A DNA stretch of 10,845 bases, from the IMG/VR virus record IMGVR_UViG_2531839579_000019. The stretch is one strand, 5' to 3'. This document shows positions 1 to 10,845 of the stretch, in pieces. Position numbers and translations under genes: made by a program. The notes beneath the pieces are model-generated. The model was not told the DNA's origin. It ran no database searches and saw only the letters and a list, made by a program, of their open reading frames with translations. How positions within the stretch are numbered: the stretch's first letter is position 1; the number at the start of each line of letters is the position of its first letter. Origin of the DNA: a virus (lineage: Duplodnaviria; Heunggongvirae; Uroviricota; Caudoviricetes).

Positions 1-1
1 A

Positions 2-208
2 TTTTTATTAGCATCAGAAATTTCAGACAACTATGACAATCTTCCTGAGAAAGTATCCAAGCTTGTTGAAAACTATAAAGGATTTAGATTTAACTCAGAA
101 GCAGAGACAATCAGAAATTTATTACGCTATATAGTCAACACACGGAAATTAAGTGATTTCTCACAAGCACTTTTGAAGATTGAAGAGATAATAAATAATT
201 ACAAATAA
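2..208 (+). CDS. 3' end of an unknown AT-rich cargo gene (5'-truncated by the window edge); C-terminal 68 aa ...LLKIEEIINNYK, stop TAA at 206-208
   Basis: Frame open from the window start to TAA 206-208. Base composition is strongly AT-rich (about 30% GC by my count), unlike the GC-rich P4-like core next to it. Ends 18 bp before the cos sequence. No recognisable motif in the visible tail. Confidence 0.5.
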   Translation, partial: FLLASEISDNYDNLPEKVSKLVENYKGFRFNSEAETIRNLLRYIVNTRKLSDFSQALLKIEEIINNYK

Positions 209-226
209 TTTCGTTCCTAGCGCGCA

Positions 227-245
227 GTGCTTTCCCCGCCTCGCC
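227..245. other. cos: cos site: 19-nt P2/P4-type cohesive-end sequence
   Basis: Sequence gtgctttccccgcctcgcc is the exact reverse complement of GGCGAGGCGGGGAAAGCAC, which I recall as the P2/186/P4 cohesive end. It lies just beyond the psu stop, as in P4. Confidence 0.7.
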
Positions 246-348
246 CGCCCGCTTTGCGGGGCGGTTTTAATGCAGTTGCACTGACACGCTCAGACCGCGC
301 CGGGAATGGCGCGGTTTGCAGAAAATGAGGCAGGGAAACGCATGCAAA

Positions 349-379
349 GCCATGCACCTTATCGATGCATGGCTTTTTT
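349..379. terminator. Rho-independent terminator hairpin between convergent genes
   Basis: Perfect 8-bp stem gccatgca (349-356) / tgcatggc (366-373) with a 9-nt loop, followed by TTTTTT (374-379) on the plus strand. On the minus strand it follows the psu stop but has only a short T tract. Confidence 0.6.
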
Positions 380-409
380 CAGTAAAAACGGGCGGATTTT
401 CGGGGAATT

Positions 410-982
410 TTACACTGACTGACGTGATGCCAGTTGCGCACTTTTACGCGAAAAAATCATGTTCTGCGCAGGGGTGAATTTTTCACGGCTGTCATCCACC
501 GAAGCCACGTCAGGCCTGAATCCGATGGTCGTTAAAATGTCGCTATCCTGTGCGGAATAATTAATTTTTTCACCCTTCGCAAGCCAGGACAGAAGGGCTT
601 CACGCAGGGCATCTGTGGCACGCTGTATGGCACAGTTTCGGGCAATGGCCGTCAGCTCACTGTAGCCCATCAGCTCCGGTGCCAGTGCCGCCGCCAGTGC
701 TGTGCCGTGCTGCTGCATAAAATCATTCAGCCGGTCGCGGATGCTGATGTGCTGAACGGCTTCATGCGAACGAATATAACGACCGGCGGCCTGATTCACC
801 TGCCATTTTCTGACTTCGATAATATTGCGTAATTCGTCCAGGCGACTGACGTTTCTGCCTTCTCCTGACAGAAGCCGCAGATATTCCTGTTCGGCCGCTG
901 CCAGCTCATTTTTGCGTTGCAGCCATGCTGCTTTGTTATTCTGACAGGTGTCAAAGGCCTGCTGTAAGGCTGTGCTTTCCAT
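410..982 (-). CDS. psu: Psu, polarity suppression protein (190 aa)
   Basis: Intact 190-aa ORF starting MESTALQQAFDTCQNNKAAW; the length and N-terminus match my recollection of P4 Psu. It is the last gene of a sid-delta-psu operon and ends next to cos. Confidence 0.85.
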   Translation of the reverse strand: MESTALQQAFDTCQNNKAAWLQRKNELAAAEQEYLRLLSGEGRNVSRLDELRNIIEVRKWQVNQAAGRYIRSHEAVQHISIRDRLNDFMQQHGTALAAALAPELMGYSELTAIARNCAIQRATDALREALLSWLAKGEKINYSAQDSDILTTIGFRPDVASVDDSREKFTPAQNMIFSRKSAQLASRQSV

Positions 983-1055
983 CGTTATCTCTTTCTCATC
1001 ATGCTGAAGAATAAAAATACGGTGTGCGGCGACGGCCGGTGTTAACCGGCAGCCC

Positions 1056-1556
1056 TCATTCCAGACGCAGCGAATATGATTGTGTTTTTAACCGTACTGG
1101 CGGCAGTTCCTGTTTTTCATGCAGGCGTTCTGCCAGTTCGTCCGGCGTGACCGGGCGGACAATGAAACGGTTGATGGTCTGAAGCGTTTTAAACACCAGA
1201 CCACAGCCCGGATCCGTGCACACATAAAAACGCTCGGTGACTTCCTGAGACAGACGCCGCGATGTTCTTGACAGTGCAAGGCCTTTACATCTCCGACAAC
1301 AATATCCGGTAACAAGCATTCTTTTCGGGCGTTTCATACTGCCGGAGGCTGACGTCAGTGAATCGCGGTATCTCTGTTTGCCTGAAATGTATTCCATTCC
1401 TGAATCTTTACTGTCAGAGAAAAAGCTTTCACTCGCTTCAAATGTCGCAGAGCAATAAATATTCCGGCACTGTGCAATCATTATCTTGGTGCCATCGTCC
1501 ATGAAATGTGCGCGACGGGTGTGAGCAACATGTCCACACGACGGGCAGTAAATCAT
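1056..1556 (-). CDS. delta: Delta, Ogr/Delta-family zinc-finger late-gene activator (166 aa)
   Basis: Intact 166-aa ORF with the Ogr-type motif C-P-x-C-x-H...QC-x-N-x-x-CSATF (MIYCPSCGHVAHTRR...AQCRNIYCSATF) and a second Cys-rich half (CCRRC...CTDPGCG), consistent with P4 Delta as a fused Ogr-like dimer. Its ATG overlaps the sid stop (ATGA). Confidence 0.85.
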   Translation of the reverse strand: MIYCPSCGHVAHTRRAHFMDDGTKIMIAQCRNIYCSATFEASESFFSDSKDSGMEYISGKQRYRDSLTSASGSMKRPKRMLVTGYCCRRCKGLALSRTSRRLSQEVTERFYVCTDPGCGLVFKTLQTINRFIVRPVTPDELAERLHEKQELPPVRLKTQSYSLRLE

Positions 1557-2278
1557 GACAGCAGTCCTCTGGCCTTAAGCTCTGCTCCCTGCTGGTCTAT
1601 TTTGTCCTGCCACACCTTGCGCTGTGCCGGTGTGCCTGCCACCTCATAATCCATGTGCGGGAGTGTTGCCGCTGACAGTCCGGTCAGCCGGAGAACCGGC
1701 TCGCCGGTGAGGCTGATTTGCATCTGTTTAATTTTCTGTTCCAGCGATGATTTCACCTGCTGCATGACAGCCTTTTCCGGTGCGACGTAGCCCTGATGGC
1801 CGGTGGTGTTGGCGAGCGGATTTTCCTGTACCAGAATGCTCAGATGCATTGCCCGGACAAGCGCCTCACAGGTTTCATTCAGGGCGTGTTCCAGCTCATG
1901 CTCTGCATACAGACTCAGAGGTGATGATGTGCCTTCCGGTAGGCGGTGGCCGTGCTGTCACACGCCCCTTTCAGGCGTTCCGTTCAAATTCAGCACCACG
2001 GCCAGATTGTCATATTCCTGTACCAGCTCCCGGCGTGCCACGCGCTCAATGTGGCGCTGTTTCAGCTCGTCGCTCAGGACACCACCGGCTGCACGAAAGG
2101 CGTGCGCCAGTCTCAGCGTCTTTCCGTCGGCCTGCGCCAGCGCATTTTTTTCCTGCTCTGCCCGTTCAATGGCCGTACGGTCTCATCCATCAGGCGGGCG
2201 TTCTCAAGATGGCGGCTCTGGCTTTTCCAGTTGTGCCAGTGCGGGTTGCAGATATTCAGGGATGGTGTTGTCAGACAT
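1553..2278 (-). pseudogene. sid: sid (capsid size determination) homolog, interrupted by frameshifts
   Basis: ATG at 2278 is preceded by AGGAG, but the frame stops after 24 codons (TGA at plus 2204-2206). Protein-like sequence continues in alternating frames, with at least four frame changes between about 1914 and 2224 and a second in-frame TGA. The C-terminal 98 aa (1553-1849) is in the starting frame. The 726-nt span is close to the 244-codon P4 sid. Confidence 0.7.
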
Positions 2279-2312
2279 TTTCCGGCTCCTCGTCACTTCA
2301 GGTTAAGAAAAT

Positions 2313-2368
2313 TGTGACGTACACCGGACAACAACACGACGCATTGCAGATGTGCCAGCCCTGACACA
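2313..2368 (-). promoter_or_regulatory. Psid-type late promoter region with two Delta/Ogr-type TGT-N12-ACA dyads
   Basis: Perfect TGT-N12-ACA at 2313-2330 and 2351-2368, centred 43 and 81 bp upstream of the sid ATG and 38 bp apart. This matches the P2/P4 late-promoter arrangement with activator sites near -55 and about -18. Confidence 0.6.
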
Positions 2369-2447
2369 GGAGACTCATCCTCAGACCGGCAAGCCAGGAA
2401 AAGGTCGCAGGAAAAACCGGCTTACTGTTTGTTTTTTTATATTTTAC

Positions 2448-2551
2448 TGTTCACCTCTGTTCACCTTAAGAAAAAAGATAAGTAATACAGTAAGTTAAAG
2501 GGTGAACAATCGCAGTAATGACTGTTCACCGTCTGTTCACCACTGTTCACC
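2448..2551. repeat. ori-like iteron cluster (TGTTCACC octamers)
   Basis: Five direct copies of TGTTCACC (2448, 2458, 2523, 2534, 2544) and one inverted copy (GGTGAACA at 2501), in the divergent region between sid and the rightward operon. The same octamer recurs in the crr-like repeats about 4.8 kb away. Confidence 0.7.
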
Positions 2552-2710
2552 CGTTGATGGGCTTTTTGTGCTGTTTACTACTGTTTGTTTTTATTAATTC
2601 GCCTGAATGAATAAGAAGAAACGATTTGTATTTCACTATAAAAATTACGAATTGCTTTAAGTGGCTTTAAATGACTATATGGTGGAGATGAACAAAAAAC
2701 ACACAGCCAT

Positions 2711-2728
2711 TGTAAGGCTGCCGGAACA
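2711..2728 (+). promoter_or_regulatory. Candidate Delta-binding dyad of a PLL-type late promoter upstream of vis
   Basis: TGT-aaggctgccgga-ACA (TGT-N12-ACA) about 110 bp upstream of the vis ATG. A second, imperfect CTG-N12-ACA lies about 35 bp downstream. Single perfect dyad only, so weak. Confidence 0.35.
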
Positions 2729-2830
2729 AATCCCCCCTGTTGCGTCTGCTGAAAATATTCACAAAATAAAGCGCTACCCGAAGCCGGACGGACTTATCCG
2801 GTGCTGTATGGACATTAACGAGGTAGCCCG

Positions 2831-3097
2831 ATGCAAGCTGTTTTTTCTTCCCCGTCTCCCGCCCCTGTGACGCCACTGATGCCGCTGCCGGACATCACGC
2901 AGGAGCGTTTTTTACGTCTGCCGGAAGTGATGCACCTGTGCGGCCTGTCACGCTCGACCATCTACGAACTCATCCGTAAGGGGGAATTTCCGCCGCAGGT
3001 GAGTCTTGGCGGTAAAAATGTGGCCTGGCTGCACTCTGAAGTCACCGCATGGATGGCCGGACGCATTGCCGGACGCAAACGGGGGTACGACGCATGA
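2831..3097 (+). CDS. vis: Vis/orf88, AlpA-family helix-turn-helix regulator (88 aa)
   Basis: Intact 88-aa ORF with GAGG 6 nt upstream. Contains the AlpA-type HTH signature RLPEV...[14 protein letters not shown]. It is the first gene of the rightward operon, as for P4 orf88. Confidence 0.75.
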
Positions 3098-3132
3098 TGA
3101 TGCCCGCTCTGCAAAAACTCCCTTTTTCTGGC

Positions 3133-3162
3133 TTGCCTTTTTCCGGCATTTGCGGATATAGT
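3133..3162 (+). promoter_or_regulatory. Candidate sigma70 promoter (PLE-like) at the head of the immunity/early leader
   Basis: TTGCCT (3133-3138), 18-bp spacer, TATAGT (3157-3162), immediately downstream of vis where P4 places PLE. Hexamer match only. Confidence 0.4.
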
Positions 3163-3225
3163 TTTTCCGCTGCCGCAAAATCGGCAGCCGGGCGTAGGAA
3201 CCCGTGTAACTCGTCGGCGACATAT

Positions 3226-3247
3226 GACGCGCCATGCGTCTTTTTTT
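3226..3247 (+). terminator. Short hairpin plus T7 tract in the early leader (attenuator/timm-like terminator)
   Basis: Stem gacgc (3226-3230) / gcgtc (3236-3240), 5-nt loop, then TTTTTTT (3241-3247). Sits about 75 nt downstream of the predicted PLE start, where a termination-based immunity mechanism would act. Confidence 0.45.
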
Positions 3248-3675
3248 GTGTCGCAATCAACGCCACAGAGCACCAGATTATGGTGTGGCGTGTGGTTTGC
3301 CGTGCAGGTATGATCCTGTTCGCAATCGCATGTTATGCCACTGAGTCAATGGTAGCTCAGGCGGGGCAGCCTCCGGGCTGGCCGGTTTCCGATAACGCCG
3401 GTATTCTCACCCCCGTCTGGGCTATCGCCATCGAGCGTGAGAACTCCGGCGATAGCGTCATTTACGCTGTTATCGGAGACTGCCTTATGGCTACGACCCT
3501 TACCCCCTCACACCCTGAATTTGTCTTTGTGTTTGCGGCTGTCCGTCGCGCAGACCGTCATCCCCGTATCTGATGCTTCGCACCGTCGCCGGTGATGAAC
3601 GCAGCGCCCGCCGTTCCCTTGTCCGTGACTATGTGCTCTCCCTTGCTGCCCGTCTGCCGGTGGTGGAGGTGTCCC

Positions 3676-3963
3676 GTGCGTAATAAAAAAGCCCCTCAGA
3701 CCGTCTCAGCACGTCATGACGCCCGTGAACACCTCAGCATTGAGGCTTACCATAAGCTCAACCGCGCCAGCGCCGTATCCCAGTTTGTTGGGGGTGATTT
3801 GATTCACCGTGAACTCTCCGGCCTGCATCAGCTCTACATTCCGCATATTTTCAGCTACCTGAATGAAGATATTGATTTTGTGCTGAATGAGCTGAAAGCC
3901 AAAGGCCTGTGCCGCGATTTTCTCGCCCAGCAGAAAGACCGGGGAGACAGGACGCATGTTTGA
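3676..3963 (+). CDS. Epsilon-like small protein (95 aa from GTG 3676; frame is open from 3592)
   Basis: GTG at 3676 is preceded by GGAGG (3665-3669) and gives 95 aa. The stop overlaps the orf151 start. Start choice is uncertain; the alternative at 3592 has no Shine-Dalgarno sequence. Confidence 0.55.
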
Positions 3964-4411
3964 TTTTCCCCAGCCCGGTGAGATTTACCGTTCTGCCGGT
4001 TTTCCCGATGTGGCCGTGGTCGGCATTCTGGAAGACGGTATTCCGTGGGAAATGCCGTACCGCTGCCCGGACATTGTCTGGAACCCGTACCGCCGTAAAT
4101 TCAGTATCCTTGTGCGTATCCTCGCTGACGGGCGCACCACAGACATCCCGCTGGGGCGTTTTCTGCGGGAATTTACCTGTGACCGTCCTGACCTGTTTAA
4201 ACGCAGCCCCGTAAACCGGCATGCGGTACTGAAAGAAATGGCCGGAGACCCGGAATTACAGAAATGGCGGGAGAAATATCTGGATATTTACCCGCAGGAC
4301 ACTGTTCCGGTCAGCCGGGCAGCACCGGTGGCGCGGGAATGGCGGGAAATTCCCCGCACGGAGCCTGACCCGGAAACCACCCCGGATAACAGTTACCGCA
4401 ATTATCTGTAA
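3956..4411 (+). CDS. orf151-like protein (151 aa)
   Basis: Intact 151-aa ORF with GGAG upstream, overlapping the epsilon stop. Size and position match P4 orf151 between epsilon and alpha. Confidence 0.75.
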   Translation: MFDFPQPGEIYRSAGFPDVAVVGILEDGIPWEMPYRCPDIVWNPYRRKFSILVRILADGRTTDIPLGRFLREFTCDRPDLFKRSPVNRHAVLKEMAGDPELQKWREKYLDIYPQDTVPVSRAAPVAREWREIPRTEPDPETTPDNSYRNYL

Positions 4412-4546
4412 TTAAAAAACGACACCCGAAAAATTAAATGTGCGTATTCGCGCAGGGATACGCACGTCTTCAGGAGACGCAGATATGCCTTATCAGTTAA
4501 TGCAACCGGCACGGAATGCAGTCATCTGTCACAGGGAGGAAAGCAA

Positions 4547-4866
4547 ATGAAAACACCCTTACCGCCCGTCTTACGCGCTGCCCTTTACCGTCGCGCTGTC
4601 GCCTGTGCCTGGCTGACCGTGTGCGAACGTCAGCACCGCTACCCGCATCTCACCCTTGATCACTGGAGGCGGCCATCGCCGCTGAGCTGGAAGGCTTTTA
4701 TCTGCGCCAGCACGGTGAGGAAAAAGGGCGTCAGATAGCCTGTGCCCTGCTGGAAGATTTAATGGAATCCGGCCCCCTGAAGGCCGCGCCGTCGCTGTCC
4801 TTTCTCGGGCTGGTTGTGATGGATGAACTCTGTGCCCGTCACATAAAAGCGCCGGTACTGCACTGA
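4547..4866 (+). pseudogene. orf106-like small ORF upstream of alpha, with one apparent 1-nt frameshift
   Basis: ATG 4547 is preceded by GGGAGGA. The frame reads 63 aa, then protein-like sequence continues in another frame from about 4663 ([33 protein letters not shown]...) to TGA 4864-4866. Restoring one base near 4655-4665 would give a continuous 106-codon ORF. Confidence 0.5.
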
Positions 4867-4880
4867 AGGAGAACAACACC

Positions 4881-7210
4881 ATGAAAATGAACGTAACCGC
4901 CACCGTCAGCCATGCGCTCGGCCACTGGCCGCGTATTCTCCCGGCGCTGGGGATTCAGGTGCTGAAAAACCGTCATCAGCCCTGTCCGGTCTGTGGCGGG
5001 AGTGACCGCTTCCGTTTTGATGACAGGGAGGGGCGCGGCACCTGGTACTGCAATCAGTGTGGTGCCGGTGACGGCCTGAAACTGGTTGAAAAGGTGTTTG
5101 GTGTTTCCCCGTCCGACGCGGCCACAAAGGTGGCTGCCGTGACCGGCAGCCTGCCCCCGACTGACCCGGCAGTGACGGCTGCCGCCGGTGCTGAAACAGA
5201 CGCTGCCCGGAAGAACGCCGCCGCACTGGCACAAACCCTGATGGCGAAAACCCGTCCCGGAACCGGTAACGCCTACCTGACCCGCAAGGGCTTTCCCGGC
5301 CGGGAATGCCGGATGCTGACCGGCACACACAGAGCCGGTGGCGTGAGCTGGCGCCCGGTGACCTTGTGGTGCCACTGTATGACGACAGCGGCGAACTGGT
5401 TAACCTTCAGTTAATCAGTGCTGACGGCCGTAAGCGCACCCTGAAAGGCGGACAGGTCAGGGGCACCTGTCACACCCTTGAAGGACAGAATCAGGCCGGA
5501 AAACGTCTGTGGATAGCGGAGGGATACGCGACCGCACTTACCGTCATCACCTGACCGGTGAAACGGTGATGGTGGCGCTTTCTTCCGTGAACCTCCTTTC
5601 TCTGGCCAGCCTTGCCCGGCAGAAGCATCCGGCCTGTCAGATTGTCCTTGCCGCAGACCGTGACCTCAGCGGTGACGGCCAGAAAAAAGCCGCCGCAGCC
5701 GCAGATGCGTGTGAGGGCGTTGTTGCCCTGCCGCCGGTCTTCGGTGACTGGAATGATGCCTTCACGCAGTACGGCGGGGAGGCCACCCGTAAGGCCATTT
5801 ACGATGCCATCCGGCCACCGGCTGAAAGCCCGTTCGACACCATGAGCGAAGCAGAGTTTTCCGCCATGAGTACCAGCGAAAAGGCCATGCGTATCTATGA
5901 GCATTACGGCGAGGCGCTCGCGGTCGATGCCAACGGCCAGCTTCTGTCCCGTTATGAAAATGGTGTCTGGAAGGTGCTGCCGCCACAGGACTTTGCCCGG
6001 GATGTGGCCGGGCTGTTTCAGCGTCTGCGCGCGCCGTTCTCCTCCGGGAAGGTGGCCTCCGTGGTGGACACCCTGAAGCTGATTATTCCGCAGCAGGAAG
6101 CCCCCTCCCGCCGCCTGATTGGCTTTCGTAACGGCGTGCTCGACACGCAGAACGGCACGTTCCACCCGCACAGTCCGTCACACTGGATGCGCACCCTGTG
6201 CGATGTGGATTTCACCCCGCCGGTGGACGGTGAAACGCTGGAACCCACGCCCCCGCGTTCTGGGCTGGCTTGACCGTGCCGCCGGTGGCCGTGCGGAAAA
6301 ACGCGACGTGATTCTGGCCGCACTGTTTATGGTGCTGGCAAACCGCTACGACTGGCAGCTCTTTCTGGAGGTGACCGGTCCCGGCGGCAGCGGCAAAAGT
6401 ATCATGGCCGAAATAGCCACCCTGCTGGCCGGGGAGGATAACGCCACGTCGGCCACCATTGAGACGCTGGAATCCCCGCGTGAACGTGCCGCGTTAACTG
6501 GCTTCTCACTGATACGCCTGCCGGACCAGGAAAAATGGAGCGGCGACGGTGCCGGACTCAAGGCCATCACCGGCGGCGATGCGGTGTCCGTGGACCCGAA
6601 ATACCGGGATGCGTACTCCACGCATATCCCGGCGGTGATTCTGGCCGTGAACAATAACCCGATGCGCTTCACCGACCGCAGCGGCGGCGTGTCACGCCGG
6701 CGGGTGATTATTCACTTCCCGGAACAGATAGCCCCGCAGGAGCGCGACCCGCAGCTTAAGGACAAAATCACCCGCGAGCTGGCGGTCATCGTGCGTCACC
6801 TGATGCAGAAGTTCAGCGACCCGATGCTCGCCCGGTCACTGCTTCAGTCCCAGCAGAACTCAGACGAGGCGCTGAACATCAAACGGGATGCCGACCCGAC
6901 GTTTGATTTTATCGGCTATCTGGAAACCCTGCCGCAGACCAGCGGCATGTATATGGGGAACGCCAGTATCATCCCGCGTAATTACCGTAAATACCTCTAT
7001 CACGCCTATCTGGCCTACATGGAGGCAAACGGCTACCGGAATGTACTCAGTCTGAAAATGTTCGGGCTGGGGCTGCCGGTGATGCTGAAGGAATACGGAC
7101 TGAATTACGAGAAGCGCCATACCAAACAGGGGATACAGACCAACCTGACGCTGAAAGAGGAAAGCTACGGCGACTGGCTGCCAAAATGTGACGACCCTGC
7201 AACAGCCTGA
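4881..7210 (+). pseudogene. alpha: Alpha-type primase/helicase, split into four frame segments by three frameshifts
   Basis: AAGGAGA 8 nt upstream of ATG 4881. Zinc-binding primase N-terminus (CPVCGG...RF...WYCNQCG), a Toprim-like segment (5306-5554), and a helicase part with Walker A GPGGSGKS (6119-7210). Frame changes fall within 5306-5414, 5509-5554 and 6119-6273. Total span 2330 nt, close to the 777-codon P4 alpha. Confidence 0.8.
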
Positions 7211-7267: not shown

Positions 7268-7566
7268 AAGGTGAACAATCCACTGTTCACCCTTCACCGT
7301 ATATTCACCCGTTATCACACTGAAATTAAAAGAGAAAAACGAAAGGTGAACAGTGTGAACAATCAAATCAAAAAAAACTTTTTTCTTCCTGAGTGATTTC
7401 AGTGCGGAGGATTAATCACCGGTATGAGTCACACCGGCAGAATGCCGGAGGTGAAGAATCGAATGTTCACCCTTCACCCATTATTCACCACCTATCACTC
7501 TGAAATAAAAGGAGAAAACAGAAAGGTGAACAGTGTGAACAGTTCTTTCGAAAAAAAATTTTTTAT
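7268..7566. repeat. crr-like cis replication region: two ~117-bp direct repeats carrying the iterons
   Basis: Unit 1 (about 7268-7384) and unit 2 (about 7448-7566) are imperfect direct repeats with a 180-bp period. Each carries several TGTTCACC/GGTGAACA motifs and ends in an A-run/T-run. Matches the two-repeat crr downstream of alpha in P4. Confidence 0.7.
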
Positions 7567-7757
7567 GTGGATAAAAGATGCACTGGTTTGGATCCGAGCT
7601 ACGGATCCAAACTTACTGATTAAAAATGATTTAACTTTCCGATTTATTGATGGGCTGAAAATAGATTGGTCAGAAAAACAGTGGGGGCACAAAAGGGGGC
7701 ATATTTCATTGTTGTGTTTTATTATTTGTTTTTTATCATTAACTTATTTTGATGTTT

Positions 7758-7776
7758 GAGTCCGGCCTTCGCACCA
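7758..7776 (+). other. attP: att core resembling the 3' end of tRNA-Leu (leuX), with no tRNA body upstream
   Basis: gagtccggccttcgcacca matches the leuX 3' end GAGTCCGGCCTTCGGCACCA as I recall it, except for one missing G. The sequence upstream (7700-7757) is AT-rich and not tRNA-like. Lies 190 bp upstream of int. Confidence 0.55.
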
Positions 7777-7792
7777 TATAAAGTTTTTTTCA

Positions 7793-7876
7793 AGTCTACT
7801 CACGTCTACTTTAGTCCATAAAAACAGTAAATTAAGCAGGTTTTTTGCTTTTCTTAGTCTGTCCACGTCTACTTAC
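7793..7876. promoter_or_regulatory. Direct repeats between att core and int (candidate integrase arm-type sites / int promoter region)
   Basis: agtctactcacgtctacttt (7793-7812) and agtctgtccacgtctactta (7857-7876) match at 17 of 20 positions, 64 bp apart. Function is inferred from position only. Confidence 0.35.
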
Positions 7877-7965
7877 TTCTATCCACATATACCAACGAAT
7901 GATGGTATAACTGGTGGTATCTTCGGTTCGATTGATTTTGATACCAACAGCGGAGGTATCAACTG

Positions 7966-9216
7966 ATGGCACTTACTGATATCAAAGTTAGGACTACCAA
8001 GCCCTCCGACAAACCTTTCAAACTTACAGATGGGCAGGGTATGCACCTGCTGATCAACCCCAATGGTTCAAAATACTGGCGACTCCAATACCGTTTCGAT
8101 GGCAAACAGAAAGTTTTAGCATTGGGAGTTTATCCAATAGTCTCTCTTGGTGAAGCTCGCAGGAAACGAGATGAGGCCAAAAAGTTGGTATCTGATGGTA
8201 TCGATCCTTCCGAGAAGAAAAAAGCAGACAAGATCGAGCAGAGCGAAGCTCTGACATTCGAGGCTGTCGCAAGGGACTGGCATACTGCCTGTAAAAGGAA
8301 ATGGTCTGATTCCCACAGCGAGAGAGTTCTAAAAAGCATGGAAGATGGTCTCTTTACTGCTATTGGTAAAAGAAAAATATCCGAACTTAATACCAGAGAT
8401 CTTCTTGCCCCTATCAAGGCTGTTGAAGCTTCCGGGCGATTGGAAGTTGCTTCCCGATTACAGCAAAGAACAACGGCGGTAATGAGATATGCTGTCCAGA
8501 ACGGGCTGATAGATTACAACCCTGCTCAGGAGATGGCAGGAGCTATTGCGGTAGCTAAAAGAGTCCACAGGCCAGCTTTGCCATTCGAACGATTCTCAGA
8601 ACTTTTAGAACGAATTGATAGTTTCAAGGGTAGAAAACTCACGAAGTTAGCCGTGAAACTCACATTGCTCATTTTCATTCGTTCAAGTGAACTTAGGTTT
8701 GCTCGTTGGTCAGAGATAGATTTCGACAATGCCATGTGGACTATCCCTGGGGAACGTGAGCCATTGCCAGGGGTCAAACATTCTCATCGAGGCTCAAAAA
8801 TGAAGACCCCACACCTCGTGCCGTTAAGTCGCCAGGCTATAGAACTCCTCAAAGCTATCAAAGAAATCAGCGGTGAATGTGAACTTGTGTTCATTGGTGA
8901 TCATGATTTTAGAAAGCCTATGAGTGAAAACACGGTAAACAAGGCTTTAAGGTCTATGGGCTACGACACTACGGTTGAAGTATGTGGACATGGTTTTCGT
9001 GCGATGGCATGTAGTGCGTTGATCGAATCGGGAAAATGGTCAAGGGATGCTGTTGAACGGCAGATGAGCCACCAAGAGCGAAACTCCGTTCGTGCTGCCT
9101 ACATTCATAAAGCAGAACACCTTGATGAAAGAAGGCTTATGTTGCAGTGGTGGGCTGATTACCTTAATGCCTTGAAAGATAGGTTTATCAGTCCCTTTGA
9201 TTTTACAACAAAGTAG
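7966..9216 (+). CDS. int: P4-type tyrosine integrase (416 aa)
   Basis: GGAGG 9 nt upstream of ATG 7966. P4-family N-terminus (MALTDIKVRTTKP...YWRLQYRF...), catalytic-region H-x-x-R (HGFRAMA) and a tyrosine in RAAYIHKAEHLDERR. Intact. GC is visibly lower than the psu-alpha core. Confidence 0.9.
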   Translation: MALTDIKVRTTKPSDKPFKLTDGQGMHLLINPNGSKYWRLQYRFDGKQKVLALGVYPIVSLGEARRKRDEAKKLVSDGIDPSEKKKADKIEQSEALTFEAVARDWHTACKRKWSDSHSERVLKSMEDGLFTAIGKRKISELNTRDLLAPIKAVEASGRLEVASRLQQRTTAVMRYAVQNGLIDYNPAQEMAGAIAVAKRVHRPALPFERFSELLERIDSFKGRKLTKLAVKLTLLIFIRSSELRFARWSEIDFDNAMWTIPGEREPLPGVKHSHRGSKMKTPHLVPLSRQAIELLKAIKEISGECELVFIGDHDFRKPMSENTVNKALRSMGYDTTVEVCGHGFRAMACSALIESGKWSRDAVERQMSHQERNSVRAAYIHKAEHLDERRLMLQWWADYLNALKDRFISPFDFTTK

Positions 9217-9303: not shown

Positions 9304-10443
9304 ATGTCCACAATTAACCCCGCAATTTTTTCTTTTTTCTCTGGTTCAGGATTTCTTGATCTTGGATTTGAAAAAAATGGTTATGAAGTGGTTTTCGTGA
9401 ATGAATACCATGCTCCGTTTATGGATGCATATAAACATTCGAGGAAAAAATTAAATATAGCACCACCTCGTTTTGGGTATGCAGAGTGCAGTATTGAAGA
9501 TGTAGAACATGAAAAAATTAAGTCTTCTATGCTTCAACTTAAAAATGAGGGGCGATTGACTGGATTTATTGGTGGTCCACCATGCCCGGATTTCTCTGTA
9601 GCGGGTAAAAATAAAGGTCGAGATGGTGAAAACGGTCGGCTTTCACAAAGCTATATTGATATCATTCTTGAAATGAAACCAGATTTCTTTCTTTTTGAGA
9701 ATGTTAAAGGTCTATACCGTACCAGTAAACATAGGGAATTTTTTGACCATTTAAAAACTCAATTAGAATCGGTTGGTTATTGTTTGCATGAAAAACTAAT
9801 AAATTCTATTGAATATGGTGCTCCTCAAGATAGGCAACGAATCATATTGATTGGTTTCCTTGATGAAAAATATGCAAGCCAATTCAATTGGGGGCAAAGA
9901 GTCTACCCTGAAAGAACTGCATTTGAATATAAATGGCCGACGACAAACCAATTTTCAGAAAACACTTCTGTTATAAAACCAAAGGGTATCCCAGAAGAGT
10001 TAACAGTAGAGCATTGGTTCAAGAAAAACCAGGTTGATAATCATCCAAATGCAAAGCATGTATTCGCGGCAAGAGCAGGGCTTGCGAGGTTTTTGACTGT
10101 CGAAGAAGGGGATGATAGTAAAAAATCCTATAAAAGGTTGCATAGATGGAGATTTTCACCAACTGCTGCTTACGGTAATAATGAGGTACATTTACATCCT
10201 TATAAACCAAGAAGAATTACTGTTGCCGAAGCATTAGCAATTCAGTCTTTACCAAAAGAATTTGAATTACCTGCTTATATGACTCTGTCTAATATGTTTA
10301 AAACTGTCGGTAACGGTGTACCCTACTTAGCAGCGGCCGGTATTGCCAAATCTATTATAGAGCATTTAGGAATCGAATATGAGAGTAACTGCGGCGAACT
10401 TAGCACAGGCGATTGCCAATCTACCAAGAAACACGCAGTTTAA
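9304..10443 (+). CDS. DNA (cytosine-5)-methyltransferase (379 aa), intact
   Basis: Ordered C5-methyltransferase motifs: motif I-like FSGSGF, motif IV GGPPCPDFSVAG, motif VI FENVKGL, motif VIII QDRQR, motif X TVGNGVP. AT-rich; first gene after int. Confidence 0.85.
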   Translation: MSTINPAIFSFFSGSGFLDLGFEKNGYEVVFVNEYHAPFMDAYKHSRKKLNIAPPRFGYAECSIEDVEHEKIKSSMLQLKNEGRLTGFIGGPPCPDFSVAGKNKGRDGENGRLSQSYIDIILEMKPDFFLFENVKGLYRTSKHREFFDHLKTQLESVGYCLHEKLINSIEYGAPQDRQRIILIGFLDEKYASQFNWGQRVYPERTAFEYKWPTTNQFSENTSVIKPKGIPEELTVEHWFKKNQVDNHPNAKHVFAARAGLARFLTVEEGDDSKKSYKRLHRWRFSPTAAYGNNEVHLHPYKPRRITVAEALAIQSLPKEFELPAYMTLSNMFKTVGNGVPYLAAAGIAKSIIEHLGIEYESNCGELSTGDCQSTKKHAV

Positions 10444-10453
10444 TTATTTAAAT

Positions 10454-10845
10454 GTGCGAAATTCGGGAAGAATCATTGTAACGAATGTTCAACTTCCCGA
10501 AGGCCCAATAGAATTCAAAAGATTCGATCCAAAAAAGGGTGAGACACTGCATAGTTCTAAATCGGAAAGCATCTCCACACAAATGATGTGGAGATTGGCT
10601 AATGCTTTACAGGAAGATGTCCCTGTCAATTTGGATCGTATTTTTGGTGCAAGCTATAATACACGTGCTGTTCTCGAAAGCCTTTTGGCCCATACTCCTG
10701 AGTTTTATTGGTGTAAGCTTGATCGCCTTGAGGTAATGAACACTCAGAAAAATATTAAAAAAGGTCACAAGCACCTTATTTATAGACCAAATGACCCACA
10801 TGAAAATGGTGTAGCAATAGAACATACTACTAATGTTATAATTTC
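10454..10845 (+). CDS. Unknown ORF immediately downstream of the methyltransferase (3'-truncated by the window edge); possible functional partner
   Basis: Frame open from 10442 to the window end, 130 codons visible. Candidate starts are GTG 10454 (10 nt after the methyltransferase stop) or ATG 10583; neither has a clear Shine-Dalgarno sequence. Same strand and composition as the methyltransferase. No diagnostic motif in the visible part. Confidence 0.45.
   Translation, partial: MRNSGRIIVTNVQLPEGPIEFKRFDPKKGETLHSSKSESISTQMMWRLANALQEDVPVNLDRIFGASYNTRAVLESLLAHTPEFYWCKLDRLEVMNTQKNIKKGHKHLIYRPNDPHENGVAIEHTTNVII

Follow-up and report, generated by a model that had tools for sequence, protein, structure and literature searches.

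P4-like satellites carry a hotspot of anti-phage systems. It lies between psu and int, adjoins cos and was described for 5,251 loci with a mean length of 2.6 kb (Rousset et al. 2022; PMC9122126). The P4 capsid limits the genome to ~12 kb (Rousset et al. 2022; PMC9122126). The same authors argue that a system borne by a satellite would generally be expected to leave the helper of that satellite unrestricted (PMC9122126). One of the catalogued proteins is WP_001399512, which appears as system 9, 'SIR2_2', is counted at 115 loci and carries the comment 'Likely a NADase' (Rousset et al. 2022, Table S1B; PMC9122126). The SIR2 construct tested in that study, pFR88 from strain M605, codes for another protein (PMC9122126). 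A literature search returned no paper with the accession WP_001399512 and no published phage or NAD+ test.

DSR2 of Bacillus subtilis is the closest described system on the protein level. The published enzyme forms a tetramer and is autoinhibited. Its trigger is the tail tube protein of a phage, which docks as a monomer on its middle and C-terminal solenoid domains, and the compaction on docking activates the SIR2 NADase. The loss of NAD+ aborts the infection. N133 and H171 are the catalytic residues (PMC11087589). A second defence sirtuin, DSR1, is a SIR2 domain fused to an Avs7-like TPR sensor (PMC12803255).

The window, that is, the whole stretch of DNA analysed here, has 10,845 bp and is identical with the complete draft contig AQBU01000082.1 of assembly GCA_000358575.2. 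This contig is missing from the tables of Rousset et al., and a literature search for the assembly accession gave no paper. At the left edge, frame 2 of the plus strand is open from position 2 to 205, comprising 68 codons, and ends with a TAA at 206-208. Each of the remaining five frames is interrupted by 4-9 stops within bases 1-208. By our own arithmetic, a 68-codon open frame has a probability of ~0.003 to occur by chance at the local base composition. The GC content of 1-208 is 28.8% versus 56.2% in the satellite backbone (209-7210). Both ends of the window cut AT-rich genes.

The 68 visible residues are 100% identical to the C-terminus of WP_001399512, a SIR2 family protein of 906 amino acids. 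Bases 2-208 (plus strand) are the 3' end of this DSR2-like SIR2 gene, with the last 68 codons and the TAA, and correspond to residues 839-906, the terminal helices of the C-terminal alpha-solenoid. The full gene is present in strain 504237, where 2,721 nt (L001:11488-14208) encode WP_001399512. Window 1-420 shares 99.8% DNA identity with four complete E. coli chromosomes. The junction of the gene with cos was found in 32 of 5,426 complete E. coli genomes, and the gene is annotated there as 'SIR2 family protein'. One relative has the database name 'NAD-dependent protein deacylase'.

The complete genomes reveal the missing left side of the locus. Three of them were inspected and have the order tRNA-Sec, a 387-aa integrase, the sirtuin gene, cos, psu, delta, sid ... 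alpha. The sirtuin gene starts 12 nt past the integrase stop in the inspected genomes. The integrase-gene junction is present at an identity of at least 99% in all genomes with the gene-cos junction (32/32). Because these 32 genomes show both junctions, the sirtuin gene occupies the variable region alone. In IMG/VR, a scan for the gene-cos junction yielded one contig; it has the tRNA-Sec-type arrangement and the same order from integrase to alpha as the complete genomes. The position between int and cos/psu that defines the P4 hotspot is thus seen from two sides: the window provides cos and psu, and the 32 genomes and the IMG/VR contig provide the integrase. An ordinary host gene next to the satellite, the case that would have overturned the preliminary description, was rejected, as the gene is located between the satellite integrase and cos in the complete genomes. 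The sirtuin is a stand-alone gene; eight distant full-length homologues share no conserved neighbour gene.

The right boundary of the variable region lies within the window. The 19-nt cohesive end of P2 and P4, GGCGAGGCGGGGAAAGCAC, is located at 227-245 on the minus strand, exactly 18 nt past the TAA. In the alignment, window position 246 pairs with base 11624, at which the linear P4 record ends, and 245 to 227 are P4 bases 1-19. Together with a conserved flank at 220-226, the cohesive end constitutes the cos feature at 220-245 (minus strand), which was identified by its identity to P4 bases 1-19. Homology to P2 and to satellites with other cargo begins at 219/220. Because the conserved cos flank starts there, cargo-specific DNA past the stop codon amounts to only ~11 nt, a spacer at 209-219. 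A consensus scan revealed a GC-rich, terminator-like hairpin followed by TTTT at 245-264 (plus strand), abutting cos downstream of the sirtuin gene. This predicted terminator could stop transcripts that read out of the cargo gene over cos. Past cos, psu (410-982, minus strand; Pfam Psu) is the first of the conserved satellite genes. It is convergent with the sirtuin gene, and its product is 100% identical to P4 Psu in a protein comparison.

Unrelated genes occupy the same position between conserved flanks in other satellites. P4 itself has gop/beta/cII at the cargo position. The tRNA-Leu satellite of strain 504237 has another cargo of two genes in the hotspot (L002:12357-13762), and homology resumes at window position 220. 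One protein of this cargo has a weak PADLOC match to RexB, and the pair is labelled 'RexA + hypothetical' in the table of Rousset et al. (2022; PMC9122126). The sister cargo illustrates cargo swapping with a probable breakpoint at window 219/220. The sirtuin cargo of ~2.7 kb resides at the same locus beside cos and is near the mean of 2.6 kb reported for the hotspot (Rousset et al. 2022; PMC9122126). The sirtuin is not among the systems cloned in that study. The window contains only the last 208 nt of the cargo.

These results confirm the preliminary description of the left edge as an AT-rich plus-strand ORF that stops at 206-208 directly before cos and psu, by the open frame, the low GC content and the gap of 18 nt between stop and cos. 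The proposal of a cargo gene at the cos-proximal edge of the int-cos variable region, read in the direction from int to cos, is supported by the complete genomes and by Rousset et al. (2022). Locus and protein are already catalogued, the one as the published P4 defence hotspot and the other as a probable NADase, and in this respect the finding adds little new.

The family of the protein was identified with profile and structure searches, as the preliminary description had advised. They were run on the full 906-aa protein or its relatives, and DSR2 was the best match in the phmmer and Foldseek searches of the PDB. Pfam detected SIR2_2 alone at E<=0.01 (residues 105-238, E=3.5e-24). With phmmer against the PDB, the best matches were many entries of B. 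subtilis DSR2 (E=8e-38, residues 12-295). The counterparts of the catalytic DSR2 residues N133 and H171 are N110 and H148, each of which is at least 90% conserved among 52 relatives. An exhaustive HMMER search with an 88%-identical relative as query found 4,431 cluster representatives, including more than 100 full-length proteins with 27-49% identity. A genome scan detected full-length relatives with 35-40% identity in Bacteroidota, Arcobacteraceae, Desulfobacterium and others. The homology extends beyond the SIR2 domain. A profile of the 52 relatives matched DSR2 over residues 24-862 (E=2.5e-94) and a DSR2 chain lacking the SIR2 domain with E=2e-11. The sub-alignment of the ~1000-aa relatives matched DSR2 end to end (22-1004, E=1e-130). 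An hhalign comparison of the enterobacterial clade with the ~1000-aa clade gave a probability of 100% (E=7.5e-97) over residues 4-874. The protein has an N-terminal SIR2 domain with the catalytic Asn and His, a homologous helical middle domain and a C-terminal solenoid, in which residues 875-906 are unaligned and ~100 C-terminal residues of DSR2 are absent.

A structural model was obtained with AF2 for the 88%-identical relative from a shallow alignment of 15 sequences. The pLDDT was 60 overall and below 50 in the SIR2 domain. The part from residue 580 to 906 was modelled well and is all helical. It ends with the helices 830-842, 852-861, 870-885 and 889-905 at pLDDT values of ~67-90. Foldseek against the PDB had DSR2 structures as all of the top 39 matches, with TM-scores of only ~0.3. 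Because the model is poor for the SIR2 and middle parts, the structural conclusions rest mainly on sequence profiles. The matches in the profile, hhalign and Foldseek comparisons identify the 906-aa protein as a DSR2 homologue. Judged from these comparisons, the DSR2 family has in it a somewhat divergent and as yet uncharacterised member.

The 68 visible residues are the last three to four helices of the putative sensor and do not form a separate domain. Sequence identity among the family relatives is 46% in the SIR2 domain, 24% in the middle part, 23% in the C-terminal part and 19% in the last 68 residues. Such a falling conservation is the pattern expected for a putative effector fused to a fast-evolving sensor. 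The earlier statement that no motif can be assigned to the visible residues was fair, for they are the least conserved part of the helical sensor domain.

The PADLOC model for Dsr2 (PDLC02184) had no match at E<=0.01 to the E. coli protein or the 88%-identical relative; it matched 16 of the 52 more distant relatives. The placement in the DSR2 family was possible though the standard defence annotator misses the protein, and short DSR2 variants are probably under-counted for this reason. The sirtuin, the restriction enzyme and the DUF6387 protein all lacked a match in NCBIfam.

Other defence systems with SIR2 domains were considered. The SIR2 NADase domain of ThsA is related (PADLOC ThsA E=5e-27, residues 7-210), and the PDB matches include ThsA and KomC. 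In contrast to the full-length similarity to DSR2, matches to ThsA, SIR2-HerA, Avs5 and DSR1 are confined to the SIR2 domain. Thoeris ThsA, which consists of SIR2 and a C-terminal SLOG domain and has a ThsB/TIR partner, was rejected: Pfam detected no SLOG domain, and the hotspot has no ThsB gene. Avs5/SIR2-STAND and SIR2-HerA were rejected as well. Pfam detected no STAND NTPase domain, and the single gene between int and cos leaves no HerA gene. For DSR1, the PADLOC Dsr1 models miss the protein and match at most 8 of the 52 relatives; the full-length homology is to DSR2.

Like B. subtilis DSR2 (PDB 8WKX, 8K98 and others), the satellite sirtuin is a single protein that has kept the Asn and His of the SIR2 domain and has a homologous helical middle domain and solenoid. 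Unlike the Bacillus protein, it stops ~100 residues earlier at the C-terminus, and its final ~32 residues cannot be aligned. The carrier also differs: it is a Gram-negative satellite with a myovirus helper, so that something other than a siphovirus tail tube protein may be the trigger.

We consider it probable that the gene with its 3' end in bases 2-208 is an anti-phage module by itself, a DSR2-family sirtuin in the int-cos hotspot of a P4-like satellite. The SIR2 domain, residues ~1-295, would act as NAD+ hydrolase, and the remaining ~600 residues, an all-helical middle domain and a solenoid, would serve as sensor. By analogy with B. subtilis DSR2, the resting state may be an inactive tetramer. 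A phage protein made during infection would dock on the helical C-terminal part. The resulting conformational change would switch on the SIR2 domain, and NAD+ depletion would block phage replication in an abortive response.

Sensing and trigger may differ from those of the Bacillus DSR2, because the clade is without the last ~100 residues of DSR2. The trigger may differ also because the extreme C-terminus is unlike DSR2 and the satellite depends on a P2-type myovirus. A further-reaching idea is that the ~900-aa clade with its own fast-evolving terminal helices senses a phage protein other than the siphovirus tail tube, fires on rival coliphages and ignores the structural proteins of the P2 helper. 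This is speculative and, in our estimate, rather unlikely. If true, the defence sensor would be shaped by the satellite's own interests. The sirtuin is a convenient candidate to find out what a satellite-borne DSR2 senses and whether the helper phage is spared.

The right part of the window presents a different situation. The satellite ends with a P4-type att P arm at 7560-7757 (plus strand), recognised by its match to the P arm of P4 attP and with GGGGGCA repeats at 7683 and 7695. The att core follows at 7758-7776 (plus strand). In an alignment with the tRNA-Leu genes of IAI1 and strain 504237 and with the P4 attP core, it equals the 3' end of tRNA-Leu (leuX) minus one G. In P4 attP, GGGGGCA arm-type repeats are present on either side of the core, two on one arm and three on the other. 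In the window, the right arm has no GGGGGCA. It has four TGGTAT repeats with the same offsets as in IAI1 from tRNA-Leu to int2. This arm region and the 416-aa integrase int2 (7966-9216), identified by the repeats and by integrase Pfam domains, represent the start of a separate leuX island at 7777-9216 (plus strand). Int2 and P4 Int share 59% identity. The second island also has a Type II restriction-modification pair, at 9304-10845 (plus strand). Its methyltransferase is a C5 enzyme (9304-10443; Pfam DNA_methylase E=5e-54, PADLOC MTase_II E=1e-163), and its restriction enzyme is represented by the N-terminal 155 codons (10379 to the contig end; PADLOC REase_II E=4e-44). The two genes overlap by 65 nt, and the restriction enzyme is only 'hypothetical' in RefSeq.

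Two genomes show this island in other contexts. In IAI1 the locus has no satellite: tRNA-Leu is directly followed by int2, the methyltransferase and the restriction enzyme, and the non-P4 genes behind them extend over more than 10 kb. Strain 504237 has a tandem arrangement with tRNA-Leu, int1, cargo, cos...alpha, int2 and methyltransferase, in which the satellite has its own integrase. Because the arm repeats differ and because of the colinearity with IAI1 and 504237, the site at 7758-7776 is a hybrid of the satellite attR and the attL of the second leuX island. The methyltransferase belongs to the second island and is therefore outside the satellite cargo. The hybrid att junction had no match in a scan of IMG/VR, and a tRNA gene search of the window had no hit.

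The att arm of the window is of the tRNA-Leu type, whereas the sirtuin gene is paired with a tRNA-Sec-type integrase in every complete genome. One explanation is a mis-join in the draft assembly. Near-identical P4-like satellites of one strain would have been collapsed, with the sirtuin flank from the copy at tRNA-Sec, the flank with attR, int2 and the restriction-modification genes from the copy at tRNA-Leu, and no linkage between the two ends. We give this explanation a chance slightly below even. A mis-join is favoured by the window being a complete draft contig and by the presence of both loci in strain 504237. It is also favoured by the state of the backbone. In comparison to three close relatives, the contig has 15 single-base deletions and essentially no insertions. 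They are located at 1918-2221, 3572, 4659, 5354, 5544, 6241 and 6263. Nine affect sid and the rest the cI region, orf106 and alpha; as a result, sid, orf106 and alpha are broken into several frames. Five of the 15 coincide with the 2.5% of sites that differ between the two satellite copies of strain 504237 (~0.4 expected), and the backbone matches one copy or the other in an interleaved fashion. This suggests that the deletions originate from a collapsed-repeat consensus and are not real pseudogenes. A 71-nt stretch at 3170-3240 in the Icd-like/cI region had no exact match in the 5,426 complete E. coli genomes (best 97.2%), and its flanks are common. Taken together, these features suggest that several satellite copies may have been collapsed into this contig and that its flanks may derive from different loci.

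A simple consensus of the two 504237 copies was rejected as a full explanation of the backbone, as 27 private substitutions are left. These substitutions speak against the mis-join, as does the natural mosaicism that is common between satellites. In view of them, a genuine recombinant satellite at tRNA-Leu is a possible alternative. The conclusions on the sirtuin gene and the methyltransferase are the same whether the contig is collapsed or recombinant.

The role of the sirtuin may be questioned independently of the assembly. The protein might be a sirtuin that acts outside defence, as a protein deacylase or an ADP-ribosyltransferase, or this strain might have no more than an inactive remnant of it. 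The contig holds only the last 68 codons, so the intactness of the gene in this strain is not visible, and the RefSeq name 'SIR2 family protein' and the deacylase name of one relative would fit such a role. We regard it as improbable in view of the location in a hotspot of anti-phage systems and the full-length homology to DSR2, a demonstrated NADase defence protein. The domain is Pfam SIR2_2, and after DSR2 the solved structures nearest to the protein are those of ThsA and KomC, both defence NADases. The 68 amino acids are 100% identical to those of intact copies, which speaks against a remnant.

The preliminary description had suggested that sirtuin and methyltransferase bracket one cargo region, by circular permutation or as one insert, with int2 as the satellite's own integrase and the methyltransferase, restriction enzyme and sirtuin in a single int-cos region. 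The idea was reasonable because reference P4 has alpha, crr, attP, int, cargo and cos one after the other and oriented as in the window, and the cargo-like genes are all AT-rich and read in one direction. It is nevertheless very improbable: the hybrid att site has GGGGGCA on the left arm only and TGGTAT on the right arm only, int2 and the restriction-modification genes reside at tRNA-Leu in IAI1 without a satellite and with more than 10 kb of non-P4 genes behind them, the 504237 tandem has a separate satellite integrase, the sirtuin is alone in the hotspot in 32/32 complete genomes, the window ends do not overlap, and the element would measure at least ~14 kb by our own arithmetic versus the capsid limit of ~12 kb (PMC9122126).

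For practical purposes, when a draft contig has an integrase beside alpha and crr, this may belong to an element other than the satellite. What looks like a circular element can be the product of tandem islands at tRNA-Leu and of collapsed satellite copies.

Two ~120-bp direct repeats with TGTTCACC-type octamers at 7270-7560 are the P4 crr replication region. An ORF of 111 amino acids at 7424-7759 overlaps crr and the att site, like the GeneMark-only ORF P4p05, and is probably no gene. The delta region is replaced or shortened in some satellites bearing the same sirtuin. Window 968-1542 is unmatched in the IMG/VR contig with the sirtuin (L004:7818-8078), and the Ogr/Delta protein of the sirtuin-bearing satellite in SMS-3-5 (L034:9997-10242) has only 81 amino acids.
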